Positions 2,216 to 62,795 of a DNA stretch of 64,000 nucleotides are shown piece after piece (position 1 is the first letter of the stretch; each line of letters begins with the position of its first letter). A model generated the notes under the pieces. It was given only the letters and a program-made list of their open reading frames with translations, was not told the DNA's origin and made no database searches. The translations under genes were made by a program, and so were the position numbers. This DNA is from Squalus acanthias (Eukaryota): contig JASTWF010000121.1 in assembly GCA_030390025.1 (NCBI GenBank), positions 558,001 to 622,000 of the forward strand. The letters run 5' to 3'.

Positions 2216-2457
2216 TTGCCTACATTCCTACATTACAACAGTGACTACACTTCAAAAGTGTTTCATTGGCTGTAAAGCGCTTTGGGATGTCCTGAGCTTG
2301 CGAAAGGCGCTATATAAATGCAAGTCTTTCTTTTTTATCTCTTCACTTATTGTCAGCTGCAAACTTCGATATACTCTATTTCATCATCCAAGTCATTAAT
2401 AAATATGGTGAAAAGTTAAGGCTCCAGACCAGTTCCCTGAGGAACACCACTTGTCAC

Positions 2458-2672
2458 TGACGTAATAAAGACTCACTACGCACTTGAACATAAAGCAAGG
2501 CTTTAATCAACTTGTAACAAAACATGGAGGTCTAGTTAGCAGTCACTAGCTTCCTGTTTCCAGATTGTCTCTGCCCAAGGTGGGCCCATGCCTGAGTATT
2601 TATACTCCCTGGACGGCGCCCCAGCTGGCCGCCCAGTAGTACTTCCTGAGTTGTTACTTGCGATTTATGACA
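2458..2672 (-). repeat. 3' LTR of the gypsy element
   Basis: 215-bp direct repeat of 6754-6968. Confidence 0.95.
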
Positions 2673-2710
2673 TTCTTCCTCCCTAAAAGGTTTGGAAGTC
2701 CAGTCTTCCT

Positions 2711-4260
2711 TTAACGGACTAGGCGGACCAGAAATAGCCGCAGACGTTTAGCTCTCTGCTTGTGACTGGAAGGCACGTCTCCCCGGACCGTGTCCTGGTC
2801 CCTGGGTCGCTTGGCCCGTACCGGTAAGTCAGTAGAGTCCGCGTCATCTTGATCATCCTGTGGAGGACTGGGAATATCATGACTCCGGGTGCGGGTCCCC
2901 ACAGGTGCTGAGCTGGCCTCATCCCGGGTCGTGGCTGGAGATTGTCCGGCGTCCTGGTTTCGGGTGGCCATCCTACGGGGAGCGTCCAGCTCCCTGAGTT
3001 GATCCGGTAGCGTTGCCGGCAGATCCCCCGATGTCCCAGGCGGGGCGTCATTTTCATAGGGGTGCGGAGTATTGATATCATTGTCGGGGGATCCTTCATC
3101 ATTCGGGCCCGTGTGACCGGTTGGGCAGGGAGCCAGATCTTGGAGCGAGACGGTGGTCTCCCGGCCATCAGGGTACCGTACGTGCGCATACGTGGGGTTT
3201 ACCTCCGTTAACTCCACCTCGTCAACGAGAGGGTCGTTTTTGGCAGACCGGACGAACCTCCGGAGTAGCACCGGGCCTGGAGCCACCAACCATGACGGTA
3301 GAGACGTCCCATGTGTAGAGCGACGCCGGAATTTGAAGAATCGCTCATGAGGCGTGACATTAGTAGATGTGGAGAGAAGAGACCTGATAGAGTGTAACGC
3401 GTCGGGGAGCACCGTTTCCCACTGCTGGTCCGGCAGGTTGCGTGACCTTAGTGCCAGACGGACAGCGTTCCAGATGATGGCATTGTATCGTTCAACCTGT
3501 CCGTTACCGATTGGGTGATATGGTGTCGTCCTACTTGAGGCGATTCCCCGTTGGGAGAGATAACTTTTAAGTTCACTCGACATAAAGGAGGGACCCCGAT
3601 CAGTGTGGATAAAATTGGCCGTCCCGCAAAGGGAAAAGACCTGATCGAGGCATTTAATTACCGTAGAGGTAAGCATATTAGGGCAGGGGAAGGCGAAGGG
3701 AAAGCGTGAATACTCGTCCACCATCGTAAGTAGGTAGGTGTTCCTTGTCGACGAAGGCAATGGCCCTTTAAAGTCTATGCTGAGCCTCTGCATAGGCTGC
3801 ATTGCATGTATGAGTAAGCCATCTGATGGGCGAAAGAATTGTGGTTTCAATTCTGCACAAATCCTACAGGAGGAGCATGTTTTCTTTATGTCCTCGGTTG
3901 AAAATGGTAGATTTTTGGAGCGCACAAAGTGCAACATGCGGGTCACACCAGGATGGCATAAGTCCATATGCAAATCCGCCAGAGTCGACGTTGACATTGA
4001 GGAGCAAAATGCCCGTGTGAAGGTATCTGGGGCCACGTTCTGTTTGCCGGGTCGGTAACAGATAGTATATCCAAAGGCAGCCAGCTCCATCCTCCAGAGT
4101 TGAATTTTATTATTTTTGATTTTCGTGCGCCTCCGGTTATCCAACATGAAGGCCACAGAGCGCTGGTCAGTTATAAGCGTAAAATGACGCCGAGCAAGAA
4201 AATGACCCCATTGGCGTACAGCCTCGATGATGGCCGTAGCCTCCTTCTCGACGGGGGGGG
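2711..4260 (-). CDS. pol: Pol part 2: RNase H C-terminal half and DDE integrase
   Basis: PVEKEATAIIEAVRQW...TDQRSV RNase H; H-x4-H...CSSC zinc domain; SIDFKGP / HTDRGPSF / GQVERYN DDE triad. Confidence 0.93.
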
Positions 4261-6653
4261 TAATGGAGCTCGCTACCCTGCAAGGTTCTGGATAGGAATG
4301 CCACGGGTCGGCCACCTTGATTCAAGGTAGCGGAGATCGCCACCTCCGATGCATCGCATTCGACCACAAAAGGAAGATTTTCGTCAATGGAGCGAAGCGT
4401 GGCTTTCTCCAGCTGTCGTTTGAGGAGGTTGAAGGCAGAAATAGCCGTAGCTTCCAATGGAAAAGACTTCGCATGGAGCAGGGGCTGTATTTTATCGGAG
4501 AAGTGTGGTATCCATTTTGCGTAATAAGCAAACATGCCAAGTGCCCGACGAAGAGAGCCGAGGTTCGTCGGGGGAGGGAGCTCCTGAAGTGGACGAAGTC
4601 GCTCTGGGTCCGGTTTAATAACACCGTTGCCCACCCAGTAGCCAAGAATGTTCACCGATGGCACCGACTTCACCGATTTGGATTCGTTTAACGTTAAGTG
4701 GCGATGGCGGAGTACGTCAAAAAATCTCTGAAGATTGGCGTCATGCTCCTTTTGATCATGGCCGGCAATAGTGATATTGTCTAAATACGGAAAGGTATCC
4801 GTCAAGTTCTCTTGCCGGACTAGGCCATCCATGGCCCGTTGGAAGACGGCCACCCCATTGGTGACCCCGAATGGAAGGCGGCGAAACTGGAAAAGCCGAC
4901 CATTGGCCTCAAAGGCCGTATACTTCTTGTCGGAGTCTTGCAGTGGCACCTGATGGTACGCGCTTTTTAAATCGAAGGTCGAGAATACCTTGTATTTGGC
5001 AAGGTTGTTGACCATGTCATCTATGCGTGGCAGCGGGTAGGCATCCAGATCGGTATATAGATTAATAGTCTGCGAATAATCGATACACAGACGTTTTTTA
5101 TGTTGTTTTAAGGGATTCCTCACGATGACGACCTGAGCCCGCCAGGGAGATGAACATGGCTCGATAATACCGTCGACTAAAAGGCGAGAGATTTCCGCCT
5201 CAATAAACGCTCGATCATCTTGGCTAAAGCGCCGCGATTTGGTGGCTATGGGTTTACAGCGGGGGGGAAGATTGGCAAACAGGGAGGGTTCACCGAGTAA
5301 GGCCGCCGAGAGTGCACAAAACGGCACCTTAGAAATGGTAAGCTCCGGCCTTGACCCTCCAAACTCAAAAGTGATCTTCTTATGCTGCTTCTGGAAGTCC
5401 TGTCCCAGAAGCACATCGCTGCATAAGTTTGCGAGTACTCCGAGCCGGGTGGAGAGATACGTGCGGCCGTTGAGGATGAGGTTGACCAGACAGAAGCCAG
5501 AAGAATTGGTGGTCAGAGTCGTCAGAGCCATTGCAATCTCCCTGTCCGAGGGATAAATGTGCAGTTTTAACCTGTTGACAGCCCGCTTACTAATGAAGCT
5601 GTCAGAGCTGCAGGAGTCGATTAGCGCGCTTAGAGTGTGCCCATTTACTGAAACCTTCGTGGCTGCATGGGACAAACTTTGGGGAAAAACAGCCGTGATG
5701 GGAGGAGGGTCAATTTTCCCTTCGGCAACTGTAGCCTTAACAGTAGTTCTTGGGGGAGGAGCAGCTCCATAGATAGCAGCTGTGAAGCTAACAGGAGCTC
5801 TCGACCGGTATACTTTAGAGGAGCGGCCTTTCTTGTTAGCAAAGGCCCGTGACTGGCATACCTTGGAAAAGTGTCCTTTCTTGCTGCAATGATTGCAGGT
5901 CACATTACGAGCCGGGCAAAATTTTCTGTGATGGCACGCCCCTCCACAAAAGAAACACTTTCTTCCTGATTGCCAGGATGCTGCTAGGGCGGGGTCGTCA
6001 TCAGCGAAGGCCTCTAGGGTAGGGTCGTCGTCCGTTAGAGTAGAGTCAACATCAGTGGGGGCATCCGCCCGAGACCTACCGAAAGACTCATTAAAGGAGA
6101 TAGCCGCCGCCCGTGCACGTGGTGGGAGATAAGTGTCTGCATTTTTCTTGGCCAAGTCCAAGGAACACGCCTGGTCATAAGCAGCCCGTAAATTGAGGGT
6201 TTTATTTTCCAGCAGGCGCTGACGTATAAAAGGGGACGCGATTCCATTGATAAAGGAATCGCGGATTAGTTCCTCTTGATACTGTTCAGCTGAAACTGCT
6301 TTAAGGTTACAATCCTTGCTGAGCCTGCGAAGTTTCTGGAGAAATTCATCGAGTGATTCCCCAGGCTGCTGCCGAGTTGTGGCCAGTAGGTGTCGAGCAA
6401 AGATTTCATTTGGGGACTTGACATATAGCTGCTGTAAGATTTCGATAGCAGTGTCATAGTCTATACAGTCCTCAATATAATCATACACATGAGGAGACAC
6501 GTAGTTGATAAGCATTCGTAACTTATTAGGGACATCTGCCCCACATTCTTCAAGAAAGTTGCTAAAGGTACGAAACCAATGCTTCCATACCTTTGCTGCC
6601 GCAGGTGCATTCGGGTCCAGGTCGAGACGAGCGGGTCTAAGGAGTTTTTCCAT
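4167..6653 (-). CDS. gag-pol: Gag-Pol polyprotein, part 1: gag with zinc knuckles, aspartic protease, reverse transcriptase, start of RNase H
   Basis: CFFCGGACHHRKFC and CNHCSKKGHFSKVC knuckles; LIDSCS protease site; RLCIDYS, FDLKSAYHQ, LPFGVTNG and YLDN RT motifs; VECDAS RNase H motif. The frame is lost at the C8 run (4253-4260). Confidence 0.93.
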   Translation of the reverse strand: MEKLLRPARLDLDPNAPAAAKVWKHWFRTFSNFLEECGADVPNKLRMLINYVSPHVYDYIEDCIDYDTAIEILQQLYVKSPNEIFARHLLATTRQQPGESLDEFLQKLRRLSKDCNLKAVSAEQYQEELIRDSFINGIASPFIRQRLLENKTLNLRAAYDQACSLDLAKKNADTYLPPRARAAAISFNESFGRSRADAPTDVDSTLTDDDPTLEAFADDDPALAASWQSGRKCFFCGGACHHRKFCPARNVTCNHCSKKGHFSKVCQSRAFANKKGRSSKVYRSRAPVSFTAAIYGAAPPPRTTVKATVAEGKIDPPPITAVFPQSLSHAATKVSVNGHTLSALIDSCSSDSFISKRAVNRLKLHIYPSDREIAMALTTLTTNSSGFCLVNLILNGRTYLSTRLGVLANLCSDVLLGQDFQKQHKKITFEFGGSRPELTISKVPFCALSAALLGEPSLFANLPPRCKPIATKSRRFSQDDRAFIEAEISRLLVDGIIEPCSSPWRAQVVIVRNPLKQHKKRLCIDYSQTINLYTDLDAYPLPRIDDMVNNLAKYKVFSTFDLKSAYHQVPLQDSDKKYTAFEANGRLFQFRRLPFGVTNGVAVFQRAMDGLVRQENLTDTFPYLDNITIAGHDQKEHDANLQRFFDVLRHRHLTLNESKSVKSVPSVNILGYWVGNGVIKPDPERLRPLQELPPPTNLGSLRRALGMFAYYAKWIPHFSDKIQPLLHAKSFPLEATAISAFNLLKRQLEKATLRSIDENLPFVVECDASEVAISATLNQGGRPVAFLSRTLQGSELHYPPRREGGYGHHRGCTPMGSFSCSASFYAYN

Positions 6654-6753
6654 GATGGATCAGTTTCTTGCCCAAGTTCCCTTCTGTGGTTCGAGTTGCA
6701 GCTGGTTGTTCCGAATCACCCAAAGCGTGGAGACGATATCAAGTTGATTGAAT

Positions 6754-6968
6754 TGACGTAATAAAGACTCACTACGCACTTGAACATAAAGCAAGGCTTT
6801 AATCAACTTGTAACAAAACATGGAGGTCTAGTTAGCAGTCACTAGCTTCCTGTTTCCAGATTGTCTCTGCCCAAGGTGGGCCCATGCCTGAGTATTTATA
6901 CTCCCTGGACGGCGCCCCAGCTGGCCGCCCAGTAGTACTTCCTGAGTTGTTACTTGCGATTTATGACA
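6754..6968 (-). repeat. 5' LTR of the gypsy element (TATAAATA at 6893-6900 and ATTAAA at 6798-6803 on the - strand)
   Basis: 215-bp direct repeat of 2458-2672, located upstream of the gag ATG at 6653. Confidence 0.95.
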
Positions 6969-6973
6969 GTCAC

Positions 6974-15140: not shown

Positions 15141-15411
15141 ATTTCTATGCCAATGGCATTGCATTTGTGACCCAGAGCTGTGGGGTTATTCACAAACAAT
15201 GCATCACATGATGGTTTCCCATCGTTGGAATATGCGAACCAATATTTGAACAATATTCCTTGTTCACCTTCACTTTCAACGTTAAATCCTAGAAGTGGTG
15301 GCAGGACATGTGGATCCAGCAAAACGATCGCCTGTACATTGTTTATTCTACCACCTGTTGGATTTAACACAGGAACAGTTTGTCATATGATATTCATTTG
15401 ATATTCGAGCA

Positions 15412-16420
15412 ATTACACAGGAACAGGAGGAGGCCATTCAGCCCCTCGAGCCTGTTACACAGGAACAGGAGGAGGCCATTCATCCCCTCGAGCCTGTTAC
15501 AAAGGAACAGGAGGATGCCATTCAGCCCCTCGAGCCTATTACACAGGAACAGGAGGAGGCCATTCAGCCCCTCGAGCCTGTTACACAGGAACAGGAGGAG
15601 GCCATTCAGCCCCTCAAAGCTGCTACACAGGAACAGGAGGCCATTCAGCCTCTCGAGCCGGTTACACAGGAACAGGAGGAGGCCATTCAGCATCTCGAGC
15701 CTGTTACACAGGAACAGGAGGAGGCCATTCATCCCCTCGAGCCTGTTACACAGGAACAGGAGGAGGCCCATTCATCCCCTCAAGCCTGTTATACAGGAAC
15801 AGGAGGAGGCCATTCAGCCCATCGAGCCTGTTAGACAGGAACAGGAGGAAGCCATTCAGCCCCTCGAGCCTGTTACATAGGAAACAGCAGGAGGCCATTT
15901 AGCCTCTCGAGCCTGTTGCACAGGAACAGGAGGAAGCCATTCAGCCTCTCGAGCCTGTTACATAGGAACAGGAGGAGGCCAATCAGCCTCTCGAGCCTCT
16001 TACATAGGAACAGGAGGAGGCCATTCAGCCTCTCGAGCCTGTTACACAGGAACAGGACGAGGCCATTCAGCCCCTCGAGCCTGTTACACAGGAACAGGAG
16101 GAGGCCATTCAGCCTCTCGAGCCTGTTACACAGGAGCAGGAGGAGGCCAGTCAGCCTCTCGAGCCTCTTGCATAAGAACAGGAGGAGGCCATTCAGCCTC
16201 TCGAGCCTGTTACACAGGAACAGGAGGAGACCATTCAGCCTCTCGAGCCTGTTATACAGGAACAGGAGGAGGCCATTCAGCCCATCGAGCCTGTTAGACA
16301 GGAACAGGAGGAAGCCATTCAGCCCCTCGAGCCTGTTACATAGGAAACAGCAGGAGGCCATTCAGCCTCTCGAGCCTGTTACGTAGGAACAGGAGGAGGC
16401 CAGTCAGCCTCTCGAGCCTA
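15412..16420. repeat. 42-bp tandem array (~24 copies) derived from a CR1 3' terminus; the CR1 (-) continues to ~16720
   Basis: Unit TTACACAGGAACAGGAGGAGGCCATTCAGCCCCTCGAGCCTG runs directly into ctccaccattcaatcagatcatgg, the reverse complement of the CR1 3' UTR. Confidence 0.9.
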
Positions 16421-22906: not shown

Positions 22907-23254
22907 GTGCAAATGCTCCAGTCCTTCTCCAGTCTCCGAGCCTGGAACGTGTCACAGAGGGTCACTCGGCGCGGTTACAGTGTACCATGCGGAACGCCAG
23001 TGTGAGAGACACCGATGTCCACTGGTACCGCCGGCAACTACCAGGGAATTTTCTTAAGTGCGTTTTAACACATGAGGCAAGTGGCAGCACACGAGGGAGC
23101 CCAGGTTCCACTGACCGTCTCCAGCCTTCCACAGACACCTCCAATAACAGCTTCATTCTGACAATCACAAAGGTGCAGATTGATGACACTGCCGTCTATT
23201 ACTGCTCAGTGCGGGGATGGATCTTCGGGAGTGGATCCCTGCTCAGTGTCACCA
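22907..23254 (+). CDS. Ig V-set exon 1 with germline-joined J-like strand (receptor gene, membrane-distal domain)
   Basis: tttttcccttaaAG acceptor, GTGAGT donor, 348 bp, phase 1/1. Reads ANAPVLLQSP...ARLQCTM...DVHWY...DRLQPS...FILTITKVQIDDTAVYYC SVRGWI FGSGSLLSVT, with canonical Cys, Trp, DxAxYxC and FGxG. Confidence 0.93.
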
Positions 23255-23329
23255 GTGAGTACAGTTTACATTACAATAGCCTGAAAGTAATAACCCCTCA
23301 CACATGAATTAATTGGAGATCAGTATCTG

Positions 23330-26061: not shown

Positions 26062-29000
26062 TGTGAGTGTGAGTGTGAGTGTAGTCAGTGGGTGTGAGTG
26101 TGAGTGTAGTCAGTGAGTGTGAGTGTGAGTGTGAGTGTAGTCAGTGAGTGTGAGTGTGAGTGTAGTCAGTGAGTGTGAGTGTGAGTGTGAGTGTAGTCAG
26201 TGAGTGTGAGTGNNNNNNNNNNNNNNNNNNNNNNNNNNNNNNNNNNNNNNNNNNNNNNNNNNNNNNNNNNNNNNNNNNNNNNNNNNNNNNNNNNNNNNNN
26301 NNNNNNNNNNNNNNNNNNNNNNNNNNNNNNNNNNNNNNNNNNNNNNNNNNNNNNNNNNNNNNNAGTGTGAGTGTAGTCAGTGAGTGTGAGTGTGAGTGCG
26401 AGTGTAGTCAGTGAGTGTGAGTGTGAGTGTAGTCAGTGGGTGTGAGTGTGAGTGTAGTCAGTGAGTGTGAGTGTGAGTGTGAGTGTAGTCAGTGAGTGTG
26501 AGTGTGAGTTTAGTCAGTGAGTGTGAGTGTGAGTGTAGTCAGTGAGTGTGAGTGTGAGTTTAGTCAGTGAGTGTGAGTGTGAGTGTGAGTGTAGTCAGTG
26601 AGTGTGAGTGTGAGTGTAGTCAGTGAGTGTGAGTGTGAGTGTGAGTGTAGTCAGTGAGTGTGAGTGTGAGTGTGAGTGTGAGTGTAGTCAGTGGGTGTGA
26701 GTGTGAGTGTGAGTGTAGTCAGTGAGTGTGAGTGTGAGTGTAGTCAGTGAGTGTGAGTGNNNNNNNNNNNNNNNNNNNNNNNNNNNNNNNNNNNNNNNNN
26801 NNNNNNNNNNNNNNNNNNNNNNNNNNNNNNNNNNNNNNNNNNNNNNNNNNNNNNNNNNNNNNNNNNNNNNNNNNNNNNNNNNNNNNNNNNNNNNNNNNNN
26901 NNNNNNNNNNNNNNNNNNNNNNNNNNNNAGTGNNNNNNNNNNNNNNNNNNNNNNNNNNNNNNNNNNNNNNNNNNNNNNNNNNNNNNNNNNNNNNNNNNNN
27001 NNNNNNNNNNNNNNNNNNNNNNNNNNNNNNNNNNNNNNNNNNNNNNNNNNNNNNNNNNNNNNNNNNNNNNNNNNNNNNNNNNNNNNNNNNNNNNNNNNNN
27101 NNNNNNNNNNNNNNNNNNNNNNNNNNNNNNNNNNNNNNNNNNNNNNNNNNNAGTGTGAGTGTAGTCAGTGAGTGTGAGTGTGAGTGCGAGTGTAGTCAGT
27201 GAGTGTGAGTGTGAGTGTGAGTGTAGTCAGTGAGTGTGAGTGTGAGTGTGAGTGTAGTCAGTGAGTGTGAGTGTGAGTGTGAGTGTAGTCAGTGAGTGTG
27301 AGTGTGAGTTTAGTCAGTGAGTGTGAGTGTGAGTGTAGTCAGTGAGTGTGAGTGTGAGTTTAGTCAGTGAGTGTGAGTGTGAGTGTGAGTGTAGTCAGTG
27401 AGTGTGAGTGTGAGTGTAGTCAGTGAGTGTGAGTGNNNNNNNNNNNNNNNNNNNNNNNNNNNNNNNNNNNNNNNNNNNNNNNNNNNNNNNNNNNNNNNNN
27501 NNNNNNNNNNNNNNNNNNNNNNNNNNNNNNNNNNNNNNNNNNNNNNNNNNNNNNNNNNNNNNNNNNNNNNNNNNNNNNNNNNNNNNNNNNNNNNNNNNNN
27601 NNNNNNNNNNNNNNNNNNNNNNNNNNNNNNNNNNNNNNNNNNNNNNNNNNNNAGTGTGAGTGTAGTCAGTGGGTGTGAGTGTGAGTGTGAGTGTAGTCAG
27701 TGAGTGTGAGTGTGAGTGTGAGTGTAGTCAGTGAGTGTGAGTGTGAGTGTAGTCAGTGGGTGTGAGTGTGAGTGTGAGTGTAGTCAGTGAGTGTGAGTGT
27801 GAGTGTAGTCAGTGAGTGTGAGTGTGAGTGTGAGTGTAGTCAGTGAGTGTGAGTGTGAGTGTGAGTGTAGTCAGTGAGTGTGAGTGTGAGTGTAGTCAGT
27901 GAGTGTGAGTGTGAGTGTGAGTGTAGTCAGTGAGTGTGAGTGTGAGTGTGAGTGTAGTCAGTGAGTGTGAGTGTGAGTGTGAGTGTAGTCAGTGAGTGTG
28001 AGTGTGAGTGTAGTCAGTGAGTGTGAGTGTGAGTGTAGTCAGTGAGTGTGAGTGNNNNNNNNNNNNNNNNNNNNNNNNNNNNNNNNNNNNNNNNNNNNNN
28101 NNNNNNNNNNNNNNNNNNNNNNNNNNNNNNNNNNNNNNNNNNNNNNNNNNNNNNNNNNNNNNNNNNNNNNNNNNNNNNNNNNNNNNNNNNNNNNNNNNNN
28201 NNNNNNNNNNNNNNNNNNNNNNNNNNNNNNAGTGTGAGTGTAGTCAGTGAGTGTGAGTGTGAGTGTGAGTGTAGTCAGTGAGTGTGAGTGTGAGTGTAGT
28301 CAGTGAGTGTGAGTGNNNNNNNNNNNNNNNNNNNNNNNNNNNNNNNNNNNNNNNNNNNNNNNNNNNNNNNNNNNNNNNNNNNNNNNNNNNNNNNNNNNNN
28401 NNNNNNNNNNNNNNNNNNNNNNNNNNNNNNNNNNNNNNNNNNNNNNNNNNNNNNNNNNNNNNNNNNNNNNNNNNNNNNNNNNNNNNNNNNNAGTGTGAGT
28501 GTAGTCAGTGAGTGTGAGTGTGAGTGTAGTCAGTGAGTGTGAGTGTGAGTGTAGTCAGTGAGTGTGAGTGTGAGTGTAGTCAGTGAGTGTGAGTGNNNNN
28601 NNNNNNNNNNNNNNNNNNNNNNNNNNNNNNNNNNNNNNNNNNNNNNNNNNNNNNNNNNNNNNNNNNNNNNNNNNNNNNNNNNNNNNNNNNNNNNNNNNNN
28701 NNNNNNNNNNNNNNNNNNNNNNNNNNNNNNNNNNNNNNNNNNNNNNNNNNNNNNNNNNNNNNNNNNNNNNNNNNNNNNNNNNNNNNNNNNNNNNNNNNNN
28801 NNNNNNNNNNNNNGTGAGTGTGAGTGTAGTCAGTGAGTGTGAGTGNNNNNNNNNNNNNNNNNNNNNNNNNNNNNNNNNNNNNNNNNNNNNNNNNNNNNNN
28901 NNNNNNNNNNNNNNNNNNNNNNNNNNNNNNNNNNNNNNNNNNNNNNNNNNNNNNNNNNNNNNNNNNNNNNNNNNNNNNNNNNNNNNNNNNNNNNNNNNNN

Positions 29001-31159
29001 NNNNNNNNNNNNNNNNNNNNNAGTGNNNNNNNNNNNNNNNNNNNNNNNNNNNNNNNNNNNNNNNNNNNNNNNNNNNNNNNNNNNNNNNNNNNNNNNNNNN
29101 NNNNNNNNNNNNNNNNNNNNNNNNNNNNNNNNNNNNNNNNNNNNNNNNNNNNNNNNNNNNNNNNNNNNNNNNNNNNNNNNNNNNNNNNNNNNNNNNNNNN
29201 NNNNNNNAGTGTGAGTGTAGTCAGTGAGTGTGAGTGTGAGTGTGAGTGTAGTCAGTGAGTGTGAGTGTGAGTGTAGTCAGTGAGTGTGAGTGTGAGTGTG
29301 AGTGTAGTCAGTGAGTGTGAGTGTGAGTGTAGTCAGTAAGTGTGAGTGTGAGTGTGAGTGTAGTCAGTGAGTGTGAGTGTGAGTGTAGTAGTCAGTGAGT
29401 GTGAGTGTGAGTGTAGTCAGTGAGTGTGAGTGTGAGTGTACTCAGTGAGTGTGAGTGTGAGTGTGAGTGTAGTCAGTGAGTGTGAGTGTGAGTGTGAGTG
29501 TGAGTGTAGTCAGTGAGTGTGAGTGTGAGTGTAGTCAGTGGATGTGAGTGTGAGTGTGAGTGTCATCAGTGAGTGTGAGTGTGAGTGTAGTCAGTGAGTG
29601 TGAGTGTGAGTGTAGTCAGTGAGTGTGAGTGTGAGTGTAGTCAGTGAGTGTGAGTGTGAGTGTGAGTGTAGTCAGTGAGTGTGAGTGTGAGTGTGAGTGT
29701 AGTCAGTGAGTGTGAGTGTGAGTGTAGTCAGTGAGTGTGAGTGTGAGTGTAGTCAGTGAGTGTGAGTGNNNNNNNNNNNNNNNNNNNNNNNNNNNNNNNN
29801 NNNNNNNNNNNNNNNNNNNNNNNNNNNNNNNNNNNNNNNNNNNNNNNNNNNNNNNNNNNNNNNNNNNNNNNNNNNNNNNNNNNNNNNNNNNNNNNNNNNN
29901 NNNNNNNNNNNNNNNNNNNNNNNNNNNNNNNNNNNNNNNNNNNNAGTGTGAGTGTAGTCAGTGAGTGTGAGTGTGAGTGTGAGTGTAGTCAGTGAGTGTG
30001 AGTGTGAGTGTGAGTGTAGTCAGTGAGTGTGAGTGTGAGTGTAGTCAGTGAGTGTGTGTGTGAGTGTGAGTGTGGTCAGTGGGTGTGAGTGTGAGTGTGA
30101 GTGTGTGTGTAGTCAGTGGGTGTGAGTGTGAGTGTAGTCAGTGAGTGTGAGTGTGAGTGTGAGTGTAGTCAGTGAGTGTGAGTGTGAGTGTGAGTGTAGT
30201 CAGTGGGTGTGAGTGTGAGTGTAGTCAGTGAGTGTGAGTGTGAGTGTGAGTGTGAGTGTAGTCAGTGAGTGTGAGTGTGAGTGTGAGTGTAGTCAGTGAG
30301 TGTGAGTGNNNNNNNNNNNNNNNNNNNNNNNNNNNNNNNNNNNNNNNNNNNNNNNNNNNNNNNNNNNNNNNNNNNNNNNNNNNNNNNNNNNNNNNNNNNN
30401 NNNNNNNNNNNNNNNNNNNNNNNNNNNNNNNNNNNNNNNNNNNNNNNNNNNNNNNNNNNNNNNNNNNNNNNNNNNNNNNNNNNNNNNNNNNNNNNNAGTG
30501 TGAGTGTAGTCAGTGAGTGTGAGTGTGAGTGTAGTCAGTGAGTGTGAGTGTGAGTGTAGTCAGTGGGTGTGAGTGTGAGTGTGAGTGTGGTCAGTGGGTG
30601 TGAGTGTGAGTGTGAGTGTGTGTGTAGTCAGTGAGTGTGAGTGTGAGTGTAGTCAGTGAGTGTGAGTGTGAGTGTAGTCAGTGAGTGTGAGTGTGAGTGT
30701 GAGTGTGTGTGTAGTCAGTGAGTGTGAGTGTGAGTGTAGTCAGTGAGTGTGAGTGTGAGTGTAGTCAGTGAGTGTGAGTGTGAGTGTAGTCAGTTGGTGT
30801 GAGTGTGAGTGTAGTCAGTGGGTGTGAGTGTGAGTGTGAGTGTGGTCAGTGGGTGTGAGTGTGAGTGTGAGTGTGTGTGTAGTCAGTGAGTGTGAGTGTG
30901 AGTGTAGTCAGTGAGTGTGAGTGTGAGTGTAGTCAGTGAGTGTGAGTGTGAGTGTGAGTGTGTGTGTAGTCAGTGAGTGTGAGTGTGAGTGTAGTCAGTG
31001 AGTGTGAGTGTGAGTGTAGTCAGTGAGTGTGAGTGTGAGTGTAGTCAGTTGGTGTGAGTGTGAGTGTCTATGTGAGTGTGAGTATGAGTGTAGTCATTGG
31101 GTGTGAGTGTGTTTGTGTGTGTAGTGTGTTAGTGTGAGTGTGAGTGTGAGTGTGAGTGT
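26062..31159. repeat. (GAGTGT)n-AGTCAGT compound microsatellite/minisatellite with many N gaps
   Basis: Direct reading; a degenerate continuation lies at 36277-36570. Confidence 0.97.
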
Positions 31160-43315: not shown

Positions 43316-43663
43316 GTCCATTGGCTGATCCGGTCCTTATTCAGGATCCAACAGTCAGCAAGGTATCAGTGGGTGAAACCGTCCAGTTACAATGTGCCAT
43401 GTACAATGCCAGTGTGAGTGACACTGATGTCCACTGGCACTACCAGCGACCTGGGAACAACAGCGAGTGGGTGATGAGCCAGTTTGTGAATGGCACCATT
43501 ACCAGGTCCCGGGGTTTCCACGACCGTTTTCAGCCTTCCAGGAACGTCACCAGTAACAGTTACATTCTGACCATCGTGAATGTGTCCCTCAGTGATACTG
43601 CTGTCTACAGCTGTGGTGTGTGGAGCTCCATCTATGGAGCAGGGACCCAGCTCAATGTAACCG
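43316..43663 (+). CDS. Ig V-set exon 2 with germline-joined J-like strand (membrane-proximal domain)
   Basis: aacAG acceptor, GTAAGT donor, 348 bp, phase 1/1. Reads PLADPVLIQDP...VQLQCAM...DVHW...DRFQPS...YILTIVNVSLSDTAVYSC GVWSSI YGAGTQLNVT; ~48% identical to exon 1 by manual alignment. Confidence 0.95.
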
Positions 43664-46199: not shown

Positions 46200-46670
46200 A
46201 ACTAATAGTCTGAATCACATTTACCCGCCCTGTTCCCATCTCCCTTCATCCCCTTTTCCTTCATCCCCCTCTCCAATCTAATCTCCAATGTTGACAGTTT
46301 CTGCCTCAAGCACTAACCCTGGGAGTAAATCCCACAGCCTCACAATACTCTGTGTGAACAGATTTCACCAGCCCGCCGCTCTAAATCTCTGACATTTAAT
46401 CTTCTATCTCTGGCCCCTCATTCTTTGCCACTTAACTACAGGTAACAGTCTGCTTCTATCTACCCGGTCCCATCTTGTCAGAATTTGAAACAACTCGATC
46501 ATATCGCCCCGTAATCTGCAGTGTTCTAATGAAGAAAACAATTTCTCAAATCCTTCTTTGTATTTATATTTCCTCATATCAGGCAGCATCCCAGTGAACC
46601 TGTGCTGTTCCCTCACTGAAGCCTCGATATCCTTCCTATAGTGGAGCCCAATACTGCACACAGTCCTCTA
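46200..46670 (-). mobile_element. Degraded CR1-like 3' fragment
   Basis: LEHCRLRGDMIELFQIL...DRVDRSRLLP; its end is repeated at ~44405-44530. Confidence 0.7.
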
Positions 46671-46747
46671 ACTGGTGGCCCACCTGCCAGCACCTGCCCC
46701 CTCTGCCCTCCTCCTGCGGAGTGCCGGCCGCGATCACTCAGCCTGAC

Positions 46748-48288
46748 GCTCCTCTACAGTGCCGGGCTCTCCTCTAGAGTGCCGGGCTCTCCTCTACAGT
46801 GCCGGGCTCTCCTCTACAGTGCCGGGCTCTCCTCTACAGTGCCGGGCTCTCCTCTAGAGTGCCGGGCTCTCCTCTACAGTGCCGGGCTCTCCTCTAGAGT
46901 GCCGGGCTCTCCTCTACAGTGCCGGGCTCTCCTCTACAGTGCCGGGCTCTCCTCTACAGTGCCGGGCTCTCCTCTACAGTGCCGGGCTCTCCTCTAGAGT
47001 GCCGGGCTCTCCTCTACAGTGCCGGGCTCTCCTCTACAGTGCCGGGCTCTCCTCCAGAGTGCTGGGCTCTCCTCTACAGTGCCGGGCTCTCCTCTACAGT
47101 GCCGGGCTCTCCTCTACAGTGCCGGGCTCTCCTCTACAGTGCCGGGCTCTCCTCCAGAGTGCTGGGCTCTCCTCTACAGTGCCGGCCTCTCCTCTACAGT
47201 GCCGGGCTCTCCTCTACAGTGCCGGGCTCTCCTCTACAGTGCCGAGCTCTCCTCTAGAGTGCCGGGCTCTCCTCTACAGTGCCGAGCTCTCCTCTACAGA
47301 GCCGGGCTCTCCTCTACAGTGCCGGGCTCTCCTCTACAGTGCCGGGCTCTCCTCTACAGTGCCGGGCTCTCCTCTACAGTGCCGGGCTCTCCTCTACAGT
47401 GCCGGGCTCTCCTCTACAGTGCCGGGCTCTCCTCTACAGTGCTGGGCTCTCCTCTAGAGTGCCGGGCTCTCCTCTACAGTGCCGGGCTCTCCTCCAGAGT
47501 GCTGGGCTCTCCTCTAGAGTTCCGGGCTCTCCTCTACAATGCCGGGCTCTCCTCTAGAGTGCCGGGCTCTGCTCTACAGTGCCGGGCTCTCCTCTACAGT
47601 GCCGGGCTCTCCACTACAGTGCCGAGCTCTCCTCTAGAGTGCCGGGCTCTCCTCTAGAGTGCCGGGCTCTCCTCTAGAGTGCCGGGCTCTCCTCTAGAGT
47701 GCCGGGCTCTCCTCTAGATTGCCTGACGCTCCTCAACAGTGCCGGGCTCTCCTCCAGAGTGCCGGGCTCTCCTCTAGAGTGCCGGGCTCTGCTCTACAGT
47801 GCCGGGCTCTCCTCTAGAGTGCCGGGCTCTGCTCTACAGTGCCGGGCTCTCCTCTGCAGTGCCGGGCTCTCCTCTACAGTGCCGGGCTCTCCTCTACAGT
47901 GCCGGGCTCTCCTCTACAGTGCCGGGCTCTCCCCTACAGTGCCGGGCTCTCCTCTGCAGTGCCGGGCTCTCCTCTAGATTGCCTGACGCTCCTCAACAGT
48001 GCCGGGCTCTCCTCCAGAGTGCCGGGCTCTCCTCTACAGTGCCGGGCTCTCCTCTACAGTGCCGGGCTCTCCTCTACAGTGCCGGGCTCTCCTCTACAGT
48101 GCCGGGCTCTCCTCTACAGTGCCGGGCTCTCCACTACAGTGCCGGGCTCTCCTCTACAGTGCCGGGCTCTCCCCTACAGTGCCGGGCTCTCCTCTGCAGT
48201 GCCGGGCTCTCCTCTAGATTGCCTGACGCTCCTCAACAGTGCCGGGCTCTCCTCCAGAGTGCCGGGCTCTCCTCTACTGTGCCGGGCT
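46748..48288. repeat. 20-bp minisatellite GCCGGGCTCTCCTCTACAGT (~77 copies)
   Basis: Direct reading. Confidence 0.97.
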
Positions 48289-50151
48289 CGTTTGCCGGCA
48301 CTCCCGATCCCTGGTGGCCCAGCTGGGCCCCGAGACACACTACGCCAGGCCCCTCACCTTTAATCAGGGGAGAAAGGCCTGCAGTACCGCGGCGTGATGT
48401 GCCGCAGCGCTTGGCACATCGCAGCTTCCAGTCGCGCCCCTCCACCCTCTCGGGGCGCTACTGGGTAAATTGGCCGTGGGGGCGCTAACTTTTTCGGGGC
48501 CCCAAAGGGGGCGCTACCCAATTTTTACCCCGTAGTGTCCTGGCATTCCCACTAGGAATCCCGGGGTTTCTTTGTTATGGAGAAGGAGGAGGACGAGGAG
48601 GTGGATCGGGGAGATTGAAGGATTTTAGAGTGAGGCATCACAAAAAGACATTTGTTCACTGCACCCAGAGACCCAATCACTAGGGCTTGCAGACCAAGAA
48701 GGTTTCATCTAGTCTTCTCTGGATGTCAGTGAACGCTGTGCTTCCCTCCCCAGAGAGCTTTGGGCTGATAGGTCACCTGCTATCTGAAGACCGACAGCCC
48801 ATTTTACCAGAAAAACACTGTAGCTTTGAAAGTCACCACTACCTTGAATTTCTCTGTAACTGGATCCTTGCTCTGTGCTCTGTAGACATCAGGAAGCCGA
48901 GCCCTGCTCACGGGTATTTGCCAGCATGTGTCTAAATGCTGATGAAATGTTTACTGTTAGTAAAGGACGGACAGTCTTAGTGGATCTGAACTAACATTAA
49001 AAACATAAAGACATTCCAGTACACGCCCTGAGAACTATTTTTAAACTTTATTTTTGAAATGTGAAATGTGTCTTTGCACAGGTTGCAATTATACTGCAGT
49101 GACTGTGAAGTGAAAGTAGTGTGAAAGCACACAGAGCCAAGGCGAATCCTCAATTCAGTGGTTCGGGGGCAGTTCTCCTGCACACGTTGCATTGCTTTGA
49201 TGCTGAAATCACAATAAGGGACAGAATCCAACACAAGTTAACTGGATCAGATTTGCCATGATCTGTGTGTTATAAAGAAGTCCACTCTTTCTCAAAGTAT
49301 GACGGGCTCTGCGCTTATTGGGTTGAGTAGATCAGAGTAAAGTCGCGATCCTGAACTCCCGGGAGAAAGTTGCACAAAGGGAACTCGATGGGAAGACTGG
49401 GACTAGTGTTCACACCTTGTCCCCAACCCAAGCTCCCTTTGTGCACAGCTCCCACTGTAGGGGTTTTTCTCACTCTTTTTTTGGTATGAGAAGTAAGAAT
49501 CAACCGAGGCTGAAATACTTTTCTAAATTAACTGGTTTATTGACATTAACACACAACAGTTTCACAGATAAAGATGCTTACAACCTTATCCGGGTGTCTA
49601 ACTCGGAAGCAAGGGCCCTCACTCCTTCTCGGAGACTGAGGGTTAATTCTTCATTGCTGTCATCTTTCAACTGCTTCTTGTTCTAACTCCTAGAAATGGC
49701 TGTAAAATGGCTGGTTTATATTCTCTTGCTGGTGTTTATGGCAGTTTCTCACAGTTCCCAAGGTCCAGCCAGACAGCTGTCCTTTCTCTAACCTCGGTCT
49801 TAGCTCCCCAAAAGCACAGCAAGTTTCTTGAACAACACTTTCCCTTCCACAGCCTGAAGGAATAATAACATGCTTGAACTTGGTCAAGCTTCCCAGCGTG
49901 CCTTCTGGTTTTGGTCAAGTTTAACAGTTCTGTGTTCTTTCCTCTATTGATATGAAATTCTGCTCTTCTAGCAAGTGATCCAGCGTTTCAAGCCCATCCT
50001 TTTAATCTTCCTTAAAAGCTGGTATTAAAAGTCCATTTTGAAAAGTCCCAAATCCTTCACCACCAAGAGCGTGAGCATTACAGCATTGTACTGTGGTAAA
50101 GATGCAGTGAATGAATCTCTTATGTTTATCTGATGTGTGCCATTTATTTAG

Positions 50152-50195
50152 GACCACTGATGAAGACCAGAACACTGTATCCGCAACGCTGAATG
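50152..50195 (+). CDS. Cytoplasmic exon 1 (44 bp)
   Basis: tttatttAG acceptor, GTAGGT donor, phase 2/1. Reads (G)TTDEDQNTVSATLN and bridges the phase-2 TM exon to the phase-1 next exon. Confidence 0.68.
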
Positions 50196-51197: not shown

Positions 51198-51241
51198 ATC
51201 AAACACGGACCAGCAACCAAACAGTCGCTTCTCCTGTCATG
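51198..51241 (+). CDS. Cytoplasmic exon 2 (44 bp)
   Basis: ttttctttcAG acceptor, GTAAGG donor, phase 1/0. Reads (D)QTRTSNQTVASPVM. Confidence 0.75.
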
Positions 51242-51938: not shown

Positions 51939-52711
51939 ACTGTGCCCGGGAAATTCTCTCACACATTGCAAGATTGAGGCCACAGACAGCTTGGGGGCGA
52001 TTTTCGCCCAATACTTTGAGGTGGCCAATTTGAGACCTTAAGCTGAAAGGTCGGTTTGGCCCGCGGTTAGTGCAAGACTTGGTGTCGGAGTTGTAGCCAG
52101 TGATAGGAACGGCCGCCCGGAGGATCACGAAACAGCTGATTGCCACTTAAAGTGCCTGCTAGCGCTCAGGAAAGAGGCTGCACGGCCTTTTTGGTAGCTC
52201 GCACTTCAACTAAAGCCCTCTCCTAACAGCGACTCGCTATTTGGGAGTAAACACGGCATTGATGTCGATTTCAAGCACAACTTAAAGGGATACTCACCAT
52301 TTAAAGGGATACTCACCATTTAAAGGGATACTCACCATTTCATGGTCATTGCTGCTGGAGCTGTGACGAGGACCTCTGAAACACATCGGGAGTCTTTCTG
52401 GGAGACTTTGTCAAGACTTCACCAACACTCCAGCAACATTTATTCCGGAAATACTCTGAGGACTTCACCTAAAAAGAGTCAGTGCTGTGCTAATCCAGCT
52501 TATTGGACAACTTATAGGCGTCACCAGGAGAATGGGAGTGCTTGGTCATCGGCATCTTGCTAGGGGTTGCCACGGAGGAAGACATGAGGCCAGGCGGCGG
52601 CTACAGGAGAGAGGGACAGTAGTGCGAGGTGGTGTCCTTCCCCCTGTGGGTTCAGGAAATCCCTCCTCCTCTAGACCACCTTCTCCAGGATCTACAGTAC
52701 CGCATCCGAGA

Positions 52712-53895
52712 ACCTGAGCCCTCTCCCACGGTCCCTGAGCCCTCGGTCCCTGAGCCCTCTCCCTCGGTCCCTGAGTCCTCTCCCTCGGTCCCTGAGCCCT
52801 CTCCCTCGGTCCCTGAGCCCTCAGTCCCTGAGTCCTCTCCCTCGGTCCCCGAGTCCTCTCCCTCAGTCCCTGAGTCCTCAGTCCCTGAGTCCTCTCCCTC
52901 GGTCCCTGAGCCCTCTCCCTCGGTCCCTGAGTCCTCTCCCTCGGTCCCTGAGCCCTCGGTCCCTGAGTCCTCTCCCTCGGTCCCTGAGTCCTCTCCCTCG
53001 GTCCCTGAGCCCTCTCCCTCGGTCCCCGAGCCCTCTCCCTCGGTCCCTGAGTCCTCTCCATCGGTCCATGAGCCCTCTCCCTCGGTCCCTGTGTCCTCTC
53101 CCTCGGTCCCTGAGTCCTCTCCCTCGGTCCCTGAGTCCTCTCCCTCGGTCCCTGAGTCCTCTCCATCGGTCCATGAGCCCTCTCCCTCGGTCCCTGTGTC
53201 CTCTCCCTCGGTCCCTGAGTCCTCTCCCTCGGTCCCTGAGTCCTCTCCCTCGGTCCCTGAGCCCTCGGTCCCTGAGTCCTCTCCCTCGGTCCCTGAGTCC
53301 TCTCCCTCGGTCCCTGAGTCCTCTCCCTCGGTCCCTGAGTCCTCTCCCTCGGTCCCTGAGCCCTCGGTCCCTGAGCCCTCGGTCCCTGAGCCCTCGGTCC
53401 CTGAGCCCTCTCCCTCAGTCCCTGAGCCCTCGGTCCCTGAGCCCTCAGTCCCTGAGTCCTCTCCCTCGGTCCCTGAGTCCTCTCCCTCGGTCCCTGAGTC
53501 CTCTCCCTCGGTCCCTGAGTCCTCTCCCTCGGTCCCTGAGTCCTCTCCCTCGGTCCCTGAGTCCTCTCCCTCGGTCCCTGAGCCCTCAGTCCCTGAGTCC
53601 TCTCCCTCGGTCCCTGAGCCCTCTCCCTCGGTCCCTGAGTCCCTGAGCCCTCTCCCTCAGTCCCTGAACACTCGGTCCCTGAGCCCTCAGTCCCTGAGTC
53701 CTCTCCCTCGGTCCCTGAGCCCTCTCCCTCGGTCCCTGAGTCCCTGAGCCCTCTCCCTCAGTCCCTGAACACTCGGTCCCTGAGCCCTCAGTCCCTGAGT
53801 CCTCTCCCTCGGTCCCTGAGTCCTCTCCCTCGGTCCCTGAACACTCGGTCCCTGAGCCATCTCCCTCGGTCCCTGAGCCCTCTCCCTCGGTCCCT
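52712..53895. repeat. 21-bp minisatellite CCCTGAGTCCTCTCCCTCGGT, with interspersed shorter variants
   Basis: Direct reading. Confidence 0.95.
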
Positions 53896-55374
53896 AAAGC
53901 CTGAAAATTGAGTGCTTTTCAAAAAGGCGTGTCTTATTAGCACAGCACACATTTAGTGGCAGTTTTCACCCTTTTGGCCAAAATAACCCCCATTGACTTG
54001 TGAAGGTTGTAGTTAGATAATTTTCTCAAATTCATCAGCTCATGGATCTGTGATCAAGCTGTCAAATTTGTTAAACATATTTTGGGCATCTTTAAGTTTT
54101 CAGCTCATTCTACCTGGCCGGATATTGCGGTCAGCGGTGAACTTGCGTACAGACTTTCTATGGGCTCGTGCACTGGAACTTGCTGTGATTAGAAAGCCAT
54201 TTCAGCGCAGCGCCCTCTACAGAGCAAGCAACTGTGTGCCTCTTTAACCAATCAGATTGAAGAATCAGTACTGAGCCGTGCAGAGTCTGAACCAGGAAGT
54301 GTCAGTTAACAATATTTCATTCAATGCCAAATCATGTACAGAGAGGGAAAGAAAGATGGGATTAAGAGAGAGAGATAAAAGAGACAAAGAAAAAGTAAAA
54401 AAAGTTATTCCTTTTTATGTTTTTTAAATCTCCAACAATAATTAAAGGCTGAAGCAATGAGACTTCACACGTGTAAAAGTTAATTTTCAGTGCTGGAGAG
54501 GTTGTTTGGCTGTAATTAAGACTTACCACGCTGTTAAAAAATTACTTACACTGGAATGGACAAGCCCTAACTTGTTCTGGTGATTTTAGTTTGTATTTAT
54601 AAGGTAAGTACAGCAATTCACGCCGGTCCATATGTTTCAATGGTGAGTCTCTCGGTGAGATAGCGGTGTAGCAAAGCTTCTGGAGGAGCAGGGCATCTCG
54701 GACGGCAACTTCCTGATTTCCGCGTATGTGTGGTCGCCGGAGGTTGCTCTCCAATTTACACTTGAATTACGGTGAGCGCTGATGGCCTGACCGTTATTTC
54801 TACCGCAAATTCCTCAATGCAAACCGACTGCACCAGTTGCCATTGTGTTTGTGTGCAGTCTGTGGAAACTCTTACACAGTCTCACATCCCCATTGTGAAC
54901 TGAACATCAATTTGGTCTTTGAAAATGTAGTTAGTTCCTTTTATGTAACAGGTTGTCTACAACATGTCCCATTGCATGTAATGCCATCAATGACTGTAGA
55001 CTCCTCACTATAATGGAGCAGGTTAATTGTGTTGTACTTTAAATTTCATAACATTTCTCCATTGTAGAAAGTACAGAAGCTGTTTTACAGAATGTGCGTG
55101 TAGTATCTGTGAAACGTGTAACCTTGACAGAAAATTCATCCATTTAAGGAATTTGTGGCTAAAATATTCCTTTCGAGCTTGCTGCAAGAAGCTGGAACAT
55201 ACAGACCAGCCATGGTTCAGGAAGATTCAATCTCTGCTCTGCTCCGAGTTAGCTGATCCCAGCTGGGGTAGAGACAGGCATGTTACAATCAGCCTCAGTA
55301 CCGTAGATTAATTAAGGGAAAATGAGCCAGAGTTAAAAACTCATTCTTGATGGCTATCGAGCAATCCTTAGGTG

Positions 55375-57290: not shown

Positions 57291-57407
57291 TTGGATGAGG
57301 TAGAAATCCATTATGCTGTGCTTCAACTCACTCGACAAGGCACCGTGCAGCCGAAAGTGACAGTTACTGAAGGTACCTCAGAGTATGCAGCTGTGAAACG
57401 TACATAA
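57291..57407 (+). CDS. Terminal cytoplasmic exon with ITIM and ITSM-like motif
   Basis: tttttattgtattgcAG acceptor, phase 0. Reads LDEVEIHYAVLQLTRQGTVQPKVTVTEGTSEYAAVKRT*; IHYAVL fits (I/V/L/S)xYxx(L/V) and SEYAAV is a C-terminal ITIM/ITSM-like motif. Confidence 0.88.
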   Translation: MDEVEIHYAVLQLTRQGTVQPKVTVTEGTSEYAAVKRT

Positions 57408-57483: not shown

Positions 57484-57530
57484 CATGTAATGTCGACAGG
57501 CCCAGGGTCCCATACAAATATAGAGCGCAT

Positions 57531-60500: not shown

Positions 60501-62795
60501 CCCTGATATTACCGGACAGTCCGACACTCCCGGACCCTGATATTACCGGACAGTCCGACACTCCCGGACCCTGATATTACCGGACAATCCGAGACACCCG
60601 GACCCTGATATTACCGGACAGTCGGACACTCCCGGACCCTGATATTACCGTACAGTCCGACACTCCCGGACCCTGATATTACCGGACAGTCCGATACTCC
60701 CGGACCCTGATATTACCGGACAGTCCGACACTCTCGGACCCTGATATTACCGGACAGTCCGACACTCCCCGACCCTGATATTACCGGACAGTCCGACACT
60801 CCCAGACTCTGATATTACCGGACAGTCCGACACTCCCGGACCCTGATATTACCGGACAGTCCGATACTCCCGGACCCTGATATTACCGGACAGTCGGACA
60901 CTCCCGGACCCTGATATTACCGGACAGTCCGACACTCCCGGACCCTGATATTACTGGACAGTCGGACACTCCCGGACCCTGATATTACCGGACAGTCCGA
61001 CACTCCCGGACCCTGATATTACCGGACAGACCGACACTCCCAGACTCTGATATTACTGGACAGTCCGACACTCCCGGACCCTGATGTTACCGGACAATCC
61101 GATACTCCCAGACCCTGATATTACCAGACAGTCCGACACTCCTAGACCCTGATATTACCGGACAGTCCGACACTCCCGGACCCTGATATTACCGGACAGT
61201 CCGACACTCCCGGACCCTGATAATACCGGACAGTCCGACACTCCCGGACCCTGATATTACCGGACAGTCCGACACTCCCGGACCCTGATATTACCGGACA
61301 GTCCGACACTCCCGGACCCTGATATTACCGGACAGTCCGACACTCCCGGACCCTGATATTACCGGACAGTCCGACACTCCCGGACCCTGATATTACCGGA
61401 CAGTCCGACACTCCCGGACCCTGATATTACCGGACAATCCGAGACACCCGGACCCTGATATTACCGGACAGTCGACACTCCCGGACCCTGATATTACCGG
61501 ACAGTCCGACACTCCCGGACCCTGATATTACCGGACAGTCCGACACTCCCGGACCCTGATATTACCGGACAGTCCGACACTCCCGGACCCTGATATTACC
61601 GGACAGTCCGAGACACCCGGACCCTGATATTACCGGACAGTCGACACTCCCGGACCCTGATATTACCGTACAGTCCGACACTCCCGGACCCTGATATTAC
61701 CGGACAGTCCGATACTCCCGGACCCTGATATTACCGGACAGTCCGACACTCCCGGACCCTGATATTACCGGACAGTCCGACACTCCCCGACCCTGATATT
61801 ACCGGACAGTCCGACACTCCCAGACTCTGATATTACCGGACAGTCCGACACTCCCGGACCCTGATATTACCGGACAGTCCGATACTCCCGGACCCTGATA
61901 TTACCGGACAGTCGGACACTCCCGGACCCTGATATTACCGGACAGTCCGACACTCCCGGACCCTGATATTACTGGACAGTCGGACACTCCCGGACCCTGA
62001 TATTACCGGACAGTCCGACACTCCCGGACCCTGATATTACCGGACAGACCGACACTCCCAGACTCTGATATTACTGGACAGTCCGACACTCCCGGACCCT
62101 GATGTTACCGGACAATCCGATACTCCCAGACCCTGATATTACCAGACAGTCCGACACTCCTAGACCCTGATATTACCGGACAGTCCGACACTCCCGGACC
62201 CTGATATTACCGGACAGTCCGACACTCCCGGACCCTGATAATACCGGACAGTCCGACACTCCCGGACCCTGATATTACCGGACAGTCCGACACTCCCGGA
62301 CCCTGATATTACCGGACAGTCCGACACTCCCGGACCCTGATATTACCGGACAGTCCGACAATCCCGGACCCTGATATTACCGGACAGTCCGACACTCCCG
62401 GACCCCTGATATTAACGGACAGTCCGACACTCCCGGACCCTGATATTACCGGACAGTCGACACTCCCGGACCCTGATATTACCGGACAGTCCAACAATCC
62501 CGGACCCTGATATTACCGGACAGTCCGACACTCCCGGACCCTGATATTACCGGACAGTCCGACAATCCCGGACCCTGATATTACCGGACAGTCCGACAAT
62601 CCCGGACCCTGATATTACTGGACAGTCCGACACTCCCGGACCCTGATATTACCGGACCAGTCCGACACTCCCGGACCCTGATATTACCGGACAGTCCGAC
62701 ACTCCCGGACCCTGATATTACCGGACAGTCCGACACTCCCGGACCCTGATATTACTGGACAGTCCGACACTCCCGGACCCTGATATTACTGGATA
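57531..62795. repeat. 34-bp CpG-rich minisatellite TCCCGGACCCTGATATTACCGGACAGTCCGACAC (~155 copies, ~5.3 kb)
   Basis: Direct reading; period 34. Confidence 0.97.

Follow-up and report, generated by a model that had tools for sequence, protein, structure and literature searches.

The two V-set exons examined here, in a 64,000 nt stretch of Squalus acanthias DNA (the window), are not part of an immunoglobulin (Ig) or T cell receptor (TCR) chain. The predicted gene codes instead for two V domains, a transmembrane segment and an ITIM-type tail, and would be an inhibitory receptor within a paired immune-receptor family of cartilaginous fish. The closest relatives outside this family are, by sequence comparison, the V domains of Ig light chain sigma-2 (sigma-cart, NS5, type I). 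We consider it probable (roughly 0.65) that an ancient germline-joined VJ exon of the sigma-2 lineage was shuffled into a paired-receptor scaffold. The broader proposition, that a RAG-rejoined Ig gene was turned into a non-rearranging receptor, giving a paired ITIM/ITAM family which predates the split of chimaeras from sharks, is judged moderately probable; if true, a part of adaptive immunity has been recycled as a fixed receptor. The fused VJ feature is real and belongs to a paired-receptor family with a sigma-2-related fixed VJ domain, while the window copy is possibly dead.

Both V-set exons are 348 nt in length with AG/GT borders (Table 1), and V and J are fused within a single exon in each, as a sequence-only reading of this DNA had stated. 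The Cys codon of exon 1 (23203-23205) is followed by the loop SVRGWI (23206-23223) and an F-G-S-G J-like end, and that of exon 2 (43612-43614) by the loop GVWSSI and Y-G-A-G, such that the CDR3-like loop of six residues claimed for both domains is present, as is the phase-1 GT donor claimed for each exon end. The Pfam V-set profile is covered over nearly its full model in exon 1 (E-value: 1e-15) and exon 2 (E-value: 1e-16), and the two domains share 47% amino acid identity (55/116 columns), in line with the earlier estimate of ~48%. Both are two-Cys V-set domains, save for one extra Cys in exon 1, and the I domain with extra cysteines, a hallmark of the NITRs, is absent from both. When joined, the six window exons form a single open frame of 349 amino acids, with the ITIM-consensus motifs IHYAVL (57306-57323) and SEYAAV (57378-57395) in the last exon. 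The first cytoplasmic exon of the window gene is without the Tyr found at the corresponding place in most homologues.

Table 1. Features of the predicted receptor gene and its surroundings in the 64,000 nt window
Feature	Position	Strand	Basis
Segmental duplicate, nearly the whole window, 92-98% identical to a paralogue on the same contig (G000:C262:74273-146800)	1..64000	+	blastn dot-plot
VJ-type V-set exon 1, diverged 'B' domain type, with SVRGWI loop	22907..23254	+	AG/GT borders, open frame, Pfam V-set
End of exon 1: Cys104, 6-residue CDR3-like loop, J-like end, phase-1 donor	23203..23254	+	Sequence; J length and donor position as in sigma-2 exons
VJ-type V-set exon 2, 'C' domain type, loop 43615-43632	43316..43663	+	Sequence, Pfam V-set, contig pieces, AlphaFold model
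Stalk and transmembrane exon, helix without charged residue	45613..45763	+	Hydropathy scan; tblastn to P0030; HMM of homologue tails (E 1e-17)
Cytoplasmic exon 1 (predicted), 44 nt	50152..50195	+	Weak HMM match (E 0.06); AG/GT borders; frame kept
Cytoplasmic exon 2 (predicted), 44 nt	51198..51241	+	Weak HMM match (E 0.66); AG/GT borders; frame kept
Last exon, two ITIM-consensus motifs and stop codon	57291..57407	+	tblastn; HMM (E 2e-8); open frame

Contigs assembled from sequencing runs that were guessed to be RNA, and which are 90-100% alike to exon 1, begin or end at the exon 1 borders and connect the exon 1 type with a leader, with a further V exon or with the beginning of exon 2, although these contigs derive from relatives or paralogues, other than the window copy. 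Further contig pieces span exactly exon 2, and no contig in this set links exon 2 to the transmembrane exon. There were no indels at either loop in the contigs of five such runs, which lose rare variants and stem from gene copies other than that of the window. Of the sequencing runs that contain the window copy, none is recorded as RNA, the best share being 0.32 of words. An AlphaFold model of the exon 2 domain built from aligned input (pLDDT: 96) matches Ig and TCR V domains with a TM-score of about 0.9, and the model allows an antigen-receptor-type V fold to be assigned to domain 2 with confidence; a single-sequence model was poor (pLDDT: 56). Both fold searches returned generic VH, TCR and VL domains at tied scores and so do not discriminate between lineages, and UrIg2 and NKp30 were not among the matches listed, which excludes nothing. 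A PDB sequence search gave scFv and antibody chains only, likewise without discrimination, and the ESM Atlas only an unnamed cluster and ITIM-type look-alikes.

Homologue searches yielded 103 multi-V proteins in sharks and rays under unrelated automatic names (SIRP-like, pIgR-like and IGSF3-like among these misleading gene-model labels), to which a deeper search added Callorhinchus members. In this genome the family comprises dozens of exons, clustered on the window's contig (C262) and several other small contigs, family-bearing contigs being about 0.1-1.1 Mb in size. A C1 profile found no match in 417 kb of family DNA (the window and 37 stretches), while the control stretches were positive in 4/4 cases. 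The six-residue loop occurs in 285/295 domains of the database proteins (eight unscored, one of eight and one of nine residues), in 27/28 family exons of this genome and in 6/7 domains of three Callorhinchus proteins. The sole exception among the 28 genomic exons, a loop of nine residues, is found in a divergent two-domain subfamily (L050 and L051; G000:C515:293-362 kb).

This near-constancy across sharks, rays and chimaera shows that the domains go back to a single joined exon, no younger than the split of chimaeras from sharks, and the single loop length in all domain types bears out the earlier view that these are not recent germline joins. The absence of recombination signal sequences (RSS) also held, with none within 1 kb of either exon in a relaxed scan. 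A stricter scan, which counted consensus mismatches within 450 nt of Cys104 rather than applying an RSS information-content model, detected a site at 0/28 family exons versus 6/6 split Ig/TCR V controls. The counter-test, which asked for close homologues that are split and RSS-flanked, was positive in part: this genome has such a sigma-2 gene, with V-12RSS and 23RSS-J, but within the family itself all 28 genomic exons are unsplit. The sequence-only reading had further argued that a fixed loop length favours an exon that was never split. This does not follow, as one old join with subsequent duplication yields the same pattern, and joined sigma-2 light-chain exons of this genome likewise share a fixed loop, of eight residues in 11/12 of those fetched (seven in the other), such that a fixed length is no proof of a never-split state. 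The inference was thus half right: the fixed length excludes recent or independent joining, and is common to an exon never split and one joined once, long ago.

A transmembrane segment is present in 84/103 family proteins, of which one carries a charged residue in it. Their tails, in counts that include isoforms and automatic gene models, comprise 41 with an ITIM pair, 18 ITAM-like and 25 other or short. One transmembrane type occurs with either tail, and the transmembrane exon type of the ITAM-like members sits in the same cluster; the family therefore shows what is characteristic of paired receptors, namely paralogues in a cluster whose ectodomains are alike and whose tyrosine motifs are opposed. 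The ratio pN/pS is 3.75 among five N-terminal 'A' exons, versus 0.98 for the B and 0.85 for the C type, values based on few synonymous changes and non-independent pairs. A Pro44-type residue, at a putative light-chain pairing position, is retained in 12/284 family domains versus 54/59 of sigma-2, while N-glycan sequons are about four times more frequent per domain in the family (3.5 versus 0.8). With a transmembrane segment and tail in frame and this residue eroded, the window gene does not read as a secreted light chain that would pair with a heavy chain. The leader also differs from that of sigma-2 and is followed by a long intron, and an octamer promoter is absent at 0/7 leaders of family paralogues versus 7/7 sigma-2 stretches. 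ETS/PU.1-like GGAA cores are located 100-260 nt upstream of the ATG in family promoters (L081-L084, L099 and L100) in a scan run without a control, and these cores suggest a leukocyte promoter.

In both genome searches sigma-2 exons rank next after the family, also when the query is stripped of its J part, these next-best matches forming a large V-C1 gene cluster, the relatives of which go by the name of Ig sigma-2 or type I light chain. With sigma-2 the window domains share a mean identity of 46-48%; the figure is 36-37% for the remaining joined VJ-C1 genes and does not exceed 33% for sigma, lambda, kappa, VH and TCR domains. Each window domain is as close to sigma-2 as to the other, whereas sigma-2 itself is 34% identical to sigma and 39% to lambda. 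Beyond V sequence, the family and sigma-2 share a V-W motif after Cys104 as well as J length and phase, and joined forms, one with a six-residue loop, exist in sigma-2 too. That one is a carpet-shark sigma-2 chain with the loop EVWGYI, which family loops such as SVWGWI and SVWSYI resemble. It is identical in five carpet sharks (5/7 proteins examined) and hence presumably germline-joined. In a decayed split sigma-2 gene of this genome (L065; G000:C24:46637500-46647499, minus strand; V-12RSS, 23RSS-J, C), the J starts with TGGATC like the J-like end of exon 1 and has the same length up to the donor, although the WIFG match of exon 1 is partly young, its nearest paralogue having Y in place of F. 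By contrast with sigma-2, the family is without C1 and has tandem V domains, a transmembrane segment and a tyrosine-motif tail.

Sigma-2 loci of this genome vary in form. Beside the decayed gene lies a divergent joined sigma-2-like gene (L031) with a seven-residue loop and an octamer promoter. Dozens of sigma-2 V-C miniclusters occur on G000:C3553, C24, C185 and C3349, in which 12/12 scored V exons are joined and CDR1 and CDR2 vary; four candidate split matches on C3553 and C185 proved to be joined exons, two of them frameshifted. The sigma-2 clan also includes a joined VJ-C1 gene whose loop has nine residues (L049/L094/L095; G000:C284:272000-283000, minus strand); this gene has relatives in Heptranchias and Stegostoma, shows no match to elasmobranch sigma-2 proper and shares its contig with a split VH (L054). 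Germline-joined VDJ heavy-chain V exons whose CDR3s differ were found on G000:C29 (L057 and L059).

In a careful tree (60 of the 114 rows of a quick tree, 112 columns, long-branch outgroups, with NKp30, UrIg and named PRARP left out), a single group (98/93) unites the family with sigma-2 and with joined VJ-C1 genes from sharks, coelacanth and a lizard. Rows L017, L027 and L034 had been dropped for want of a Cys104 match and L035 for a wrongly picked frame. Elasmobranch sigma-2 is a separate group (98/95), to which the family is sister rather than nested within it, and the family groups with the joined VJ-C1 genes (86/80). Monophyly of the family received 98 in the quick tree and was not recovered with resolution in the careful one. 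The lizard VJ-C1 protein P0232, read as possibly PRARP-like, falls in the sigma-2 clan, while unnamed teleost V-I proteins, read as NITR-like, fall far outside the family. Constraining sigma-2 with sigma was rejected (p-AU 0.016). Grouping the family with the six-residue-loop carpet-shark genes was 17 lnL worse (p 0.157) and not rejected; given this difference and the position of the family outside elasmobranch sigma-2, the carpet-shark loop match may be convergent.

Because of this kinship with sigma-2, we favour one ancient join followed by exon shuffling. Before the lineages of chimaeras and sharks parted, a V and a J of sigma-2 type would have been joined by RAG in a germ cell, with loss of both RSS. 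The joined exon would then have parted from its C1 exon and octamer promoter and been inserted between a different leader and a transmembrane and tyrosine-motif tail, which is feasible as its phase-1 ends permit insertion. Tandem exon and gene duplication could have given receptors of one to nine domains. Erosion of the residues for light-chain pairing and a gain of N-glycan sites would have followed, and the domains therefore likely act unpaired. The putative role of the N-terminal domain would be to bind a variable ligand, while the motifs predict recruitment of SHP-type phosphatases by ITIM tails and of Syk-type kinases by ITAM-like tails. The different leader, absent octamer, eroded pairing residues and gained sequons of the family agree with such shuffling; the junction nucleotides are too old to reveal P or N additions. 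Split and joined sigma-2 genes and germline joining of the RAG type have been reported (PMC2193156, PMC4279169), and Lee et al. (2000; PMC2193156) remark that a direct example of a RAG-rejoined Ig gene turned new receptor is missing.

In a different history, an unsplit VJ exon older than the RAG insertion would have given rise both to the family and to the joined VJ-C1 genes, with sigma-2 as the earliest rearranging branch or its RSS gained later. The unsplit state of all 28 genomic exons, the invariance of the loop as far as Callorhinchus and the grouping of the family with joined VJ-C1 genes agree with this, and the AU test did not reject trees in which the family branches outside all rearranging receptors, be it by itself or together with the joined VJ-C1 genes (p-AU 0.114 and 0.109). 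Furthermore, single-exon VJ relics are already known (PMC12227049), and sigma-2 is reported as joined in coelacanth, gar and turtle (PMC5985310), such that the joined state may be old for the sigma-2 clan, which speaks against ancient joining. However, the free tree places the clan among rearranging receptors, and the identity to sigma-2 far exceeds that of sigma-2 to sigma or lambda, with which a root on the family stem is hard to reconcile. The split sigma-2 V-RSS has the 12-spacer arrangement common to sigma, joined clan genes vary in loop length from 5 to 11 residues, as expected of separate joins, and the VJ-C1 members end in a light-chain-type Cys, a resemblance to light chains that would presuppose a heavy-chain partner. 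We therefore regard the never-split history as unlikely for the family, and still more doubtful is its extension, in which the entire sigma-2 clan would be the never-split stem that gave rise to rearranging receptors; if it were, the clan would be a nearer candidate for the RAG target than UrIg2.

An independent innate V-type lineage, NITR- or NKp30-like, could have become sigma-2-like in its V exon through gene conversion or convergence. Its leader, promoter and tail are unrelated to those of sigma-2, the architecture is NITR-like (bioRxiv 2021.06.11.448072), and named homologues and sigma-2 lie on contigs of differing size in the same species, yet the sigma-2 similarity spans the entire exon in every domain type, in Callorhinchus too, the NITR-like teleost proteins are distant in the trees and an I domain is absent, making this improbable. 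Very improbable is the reading of the exons as recent germline-joined Ig light-chain genes or pseudogenes with no separate receptor, to which the sigma-2-like V and J and the recurrence of germline joining in sharks lend some appeal. The gene structure rules it out, unless these exons are joined to a C1 exon in cDNAs: C1 exon and octamer are absent, transmembrane and ITIM exons are in frame, V-to-V splicing occurs in the contigs, and orthologous domain types are found in rays and Callorhinchus.

Paired receptors with built-in ITIM or ITAM tails include the hagfish APAR and CEACAM1/CEACAM3. By analogy, the family resembles these in its working logic of similar outer domains, opposite tails and a variable N-terminal domain, and it is predicted to work like NITRs or CEACAM-type paired receptors. 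PRARP/VJC1 have a VJ-C1 architecture and NKp30 (NCR3) is a single V domain with a charged transmembrane segment, unlike the window gene with its two V domains and uncharged segment. Both share a non-rearranging VJ exon with the family and are set apart from it by their descriptions, PRARP/VJC1 by their C1 (PMC10751288). The elasmobranch UrIg and UrIg2 are also non-rearranging single-exon VJ genes, the latter with a transmembrane segment, but they have 3 to 11 C1 domains and form dimers, a distinction drawn from their description only, in the available part of which ITIM/ITAM pairing like the opposite tails of the family is not described (PMC12227049). Since the family has no C1, it cannot be assigned to sigma-2, UrIg or PRARP/VJC1. 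The NITRs of ray-finned fish share with it clusters, single-exon VJ domains, inhibitory and activating forms and ITIMs; the typical NITR is V-I, with activation by way of a charged transmembrane residue, whereas the family is V-only with uncharged segments and ITAM-like tails, although V-only NITRs exist (bioRxiv 10.1101/2021.06.11.448072). The window gene thus has the single-exon VJ domains and ITIM tail in a cluster of a NITR, and neither its I domain nor its charged segment. The CD28 family (PMC11599192) and MDIRs (PMC3031540), judged by the accessible parts of their descriptions, do not match.

No published description of the family was found, though subscription papers or supplements may contain one, and it looks undescribed. 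From its sequence it is a source of candidates for leukocyte receptors, both inhibitory and activating, in cartilaginous fish, in which NITR homologues are cited as lacking (bioRxiv 10.1101/2021.06.11.448072). Single-exon VJ genes have been sought as relics of the gene into which the RAG transposon inserted (PMC12227049), and the family shows that a fixed loop and absent RSS are no proof of relic status. It furthermore offers an opportunity to test the opposite path, in which an adaptive gene becomes an innate one.

The window's own copy is of lesser importance, being possibly truncated. The duplicate to which it belongs has its start 3.7 kb upstream of the window, at a point that in the paralogue lies about 1.2 kb past the leader exon. 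A leader was sought through the window and the 70 kb preceding it, and the 92.9 kb before exon 1 gave no leader-like match, the best candidates showing 23 and 24 mismatches/52. Exon 1 also carries private changes at conserved sites. On these three grounds the copy is likely truncated, unless the assembly is broken there, and it is probably a 5′-truncated pseudogene. The leader-bearing paralogue copy is also broken, since an in-frame stop comes directly after Cys104 in L009 (G000:C262:99849-100193), which is the closest paralogue of exon 1.

Long tandem-repeat tracts and CR1/L2-like LINE fragments occupy the introns (15370-16420, 26200-30500, 46600-48500, 52500-53900 and 57500-62800), and most long open reading frames of the window stem from these. 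Two further long frames of 830 and 536 amino acids on the minus strand (2711-6659) contain gag/protease/RT-like and integrase-like stretches and were read by eye as a putative Gypsy-type LTR retrotransposon, which is likely a young insertion as it is located in a gap of the paralogue alignment (about 2457-6969).
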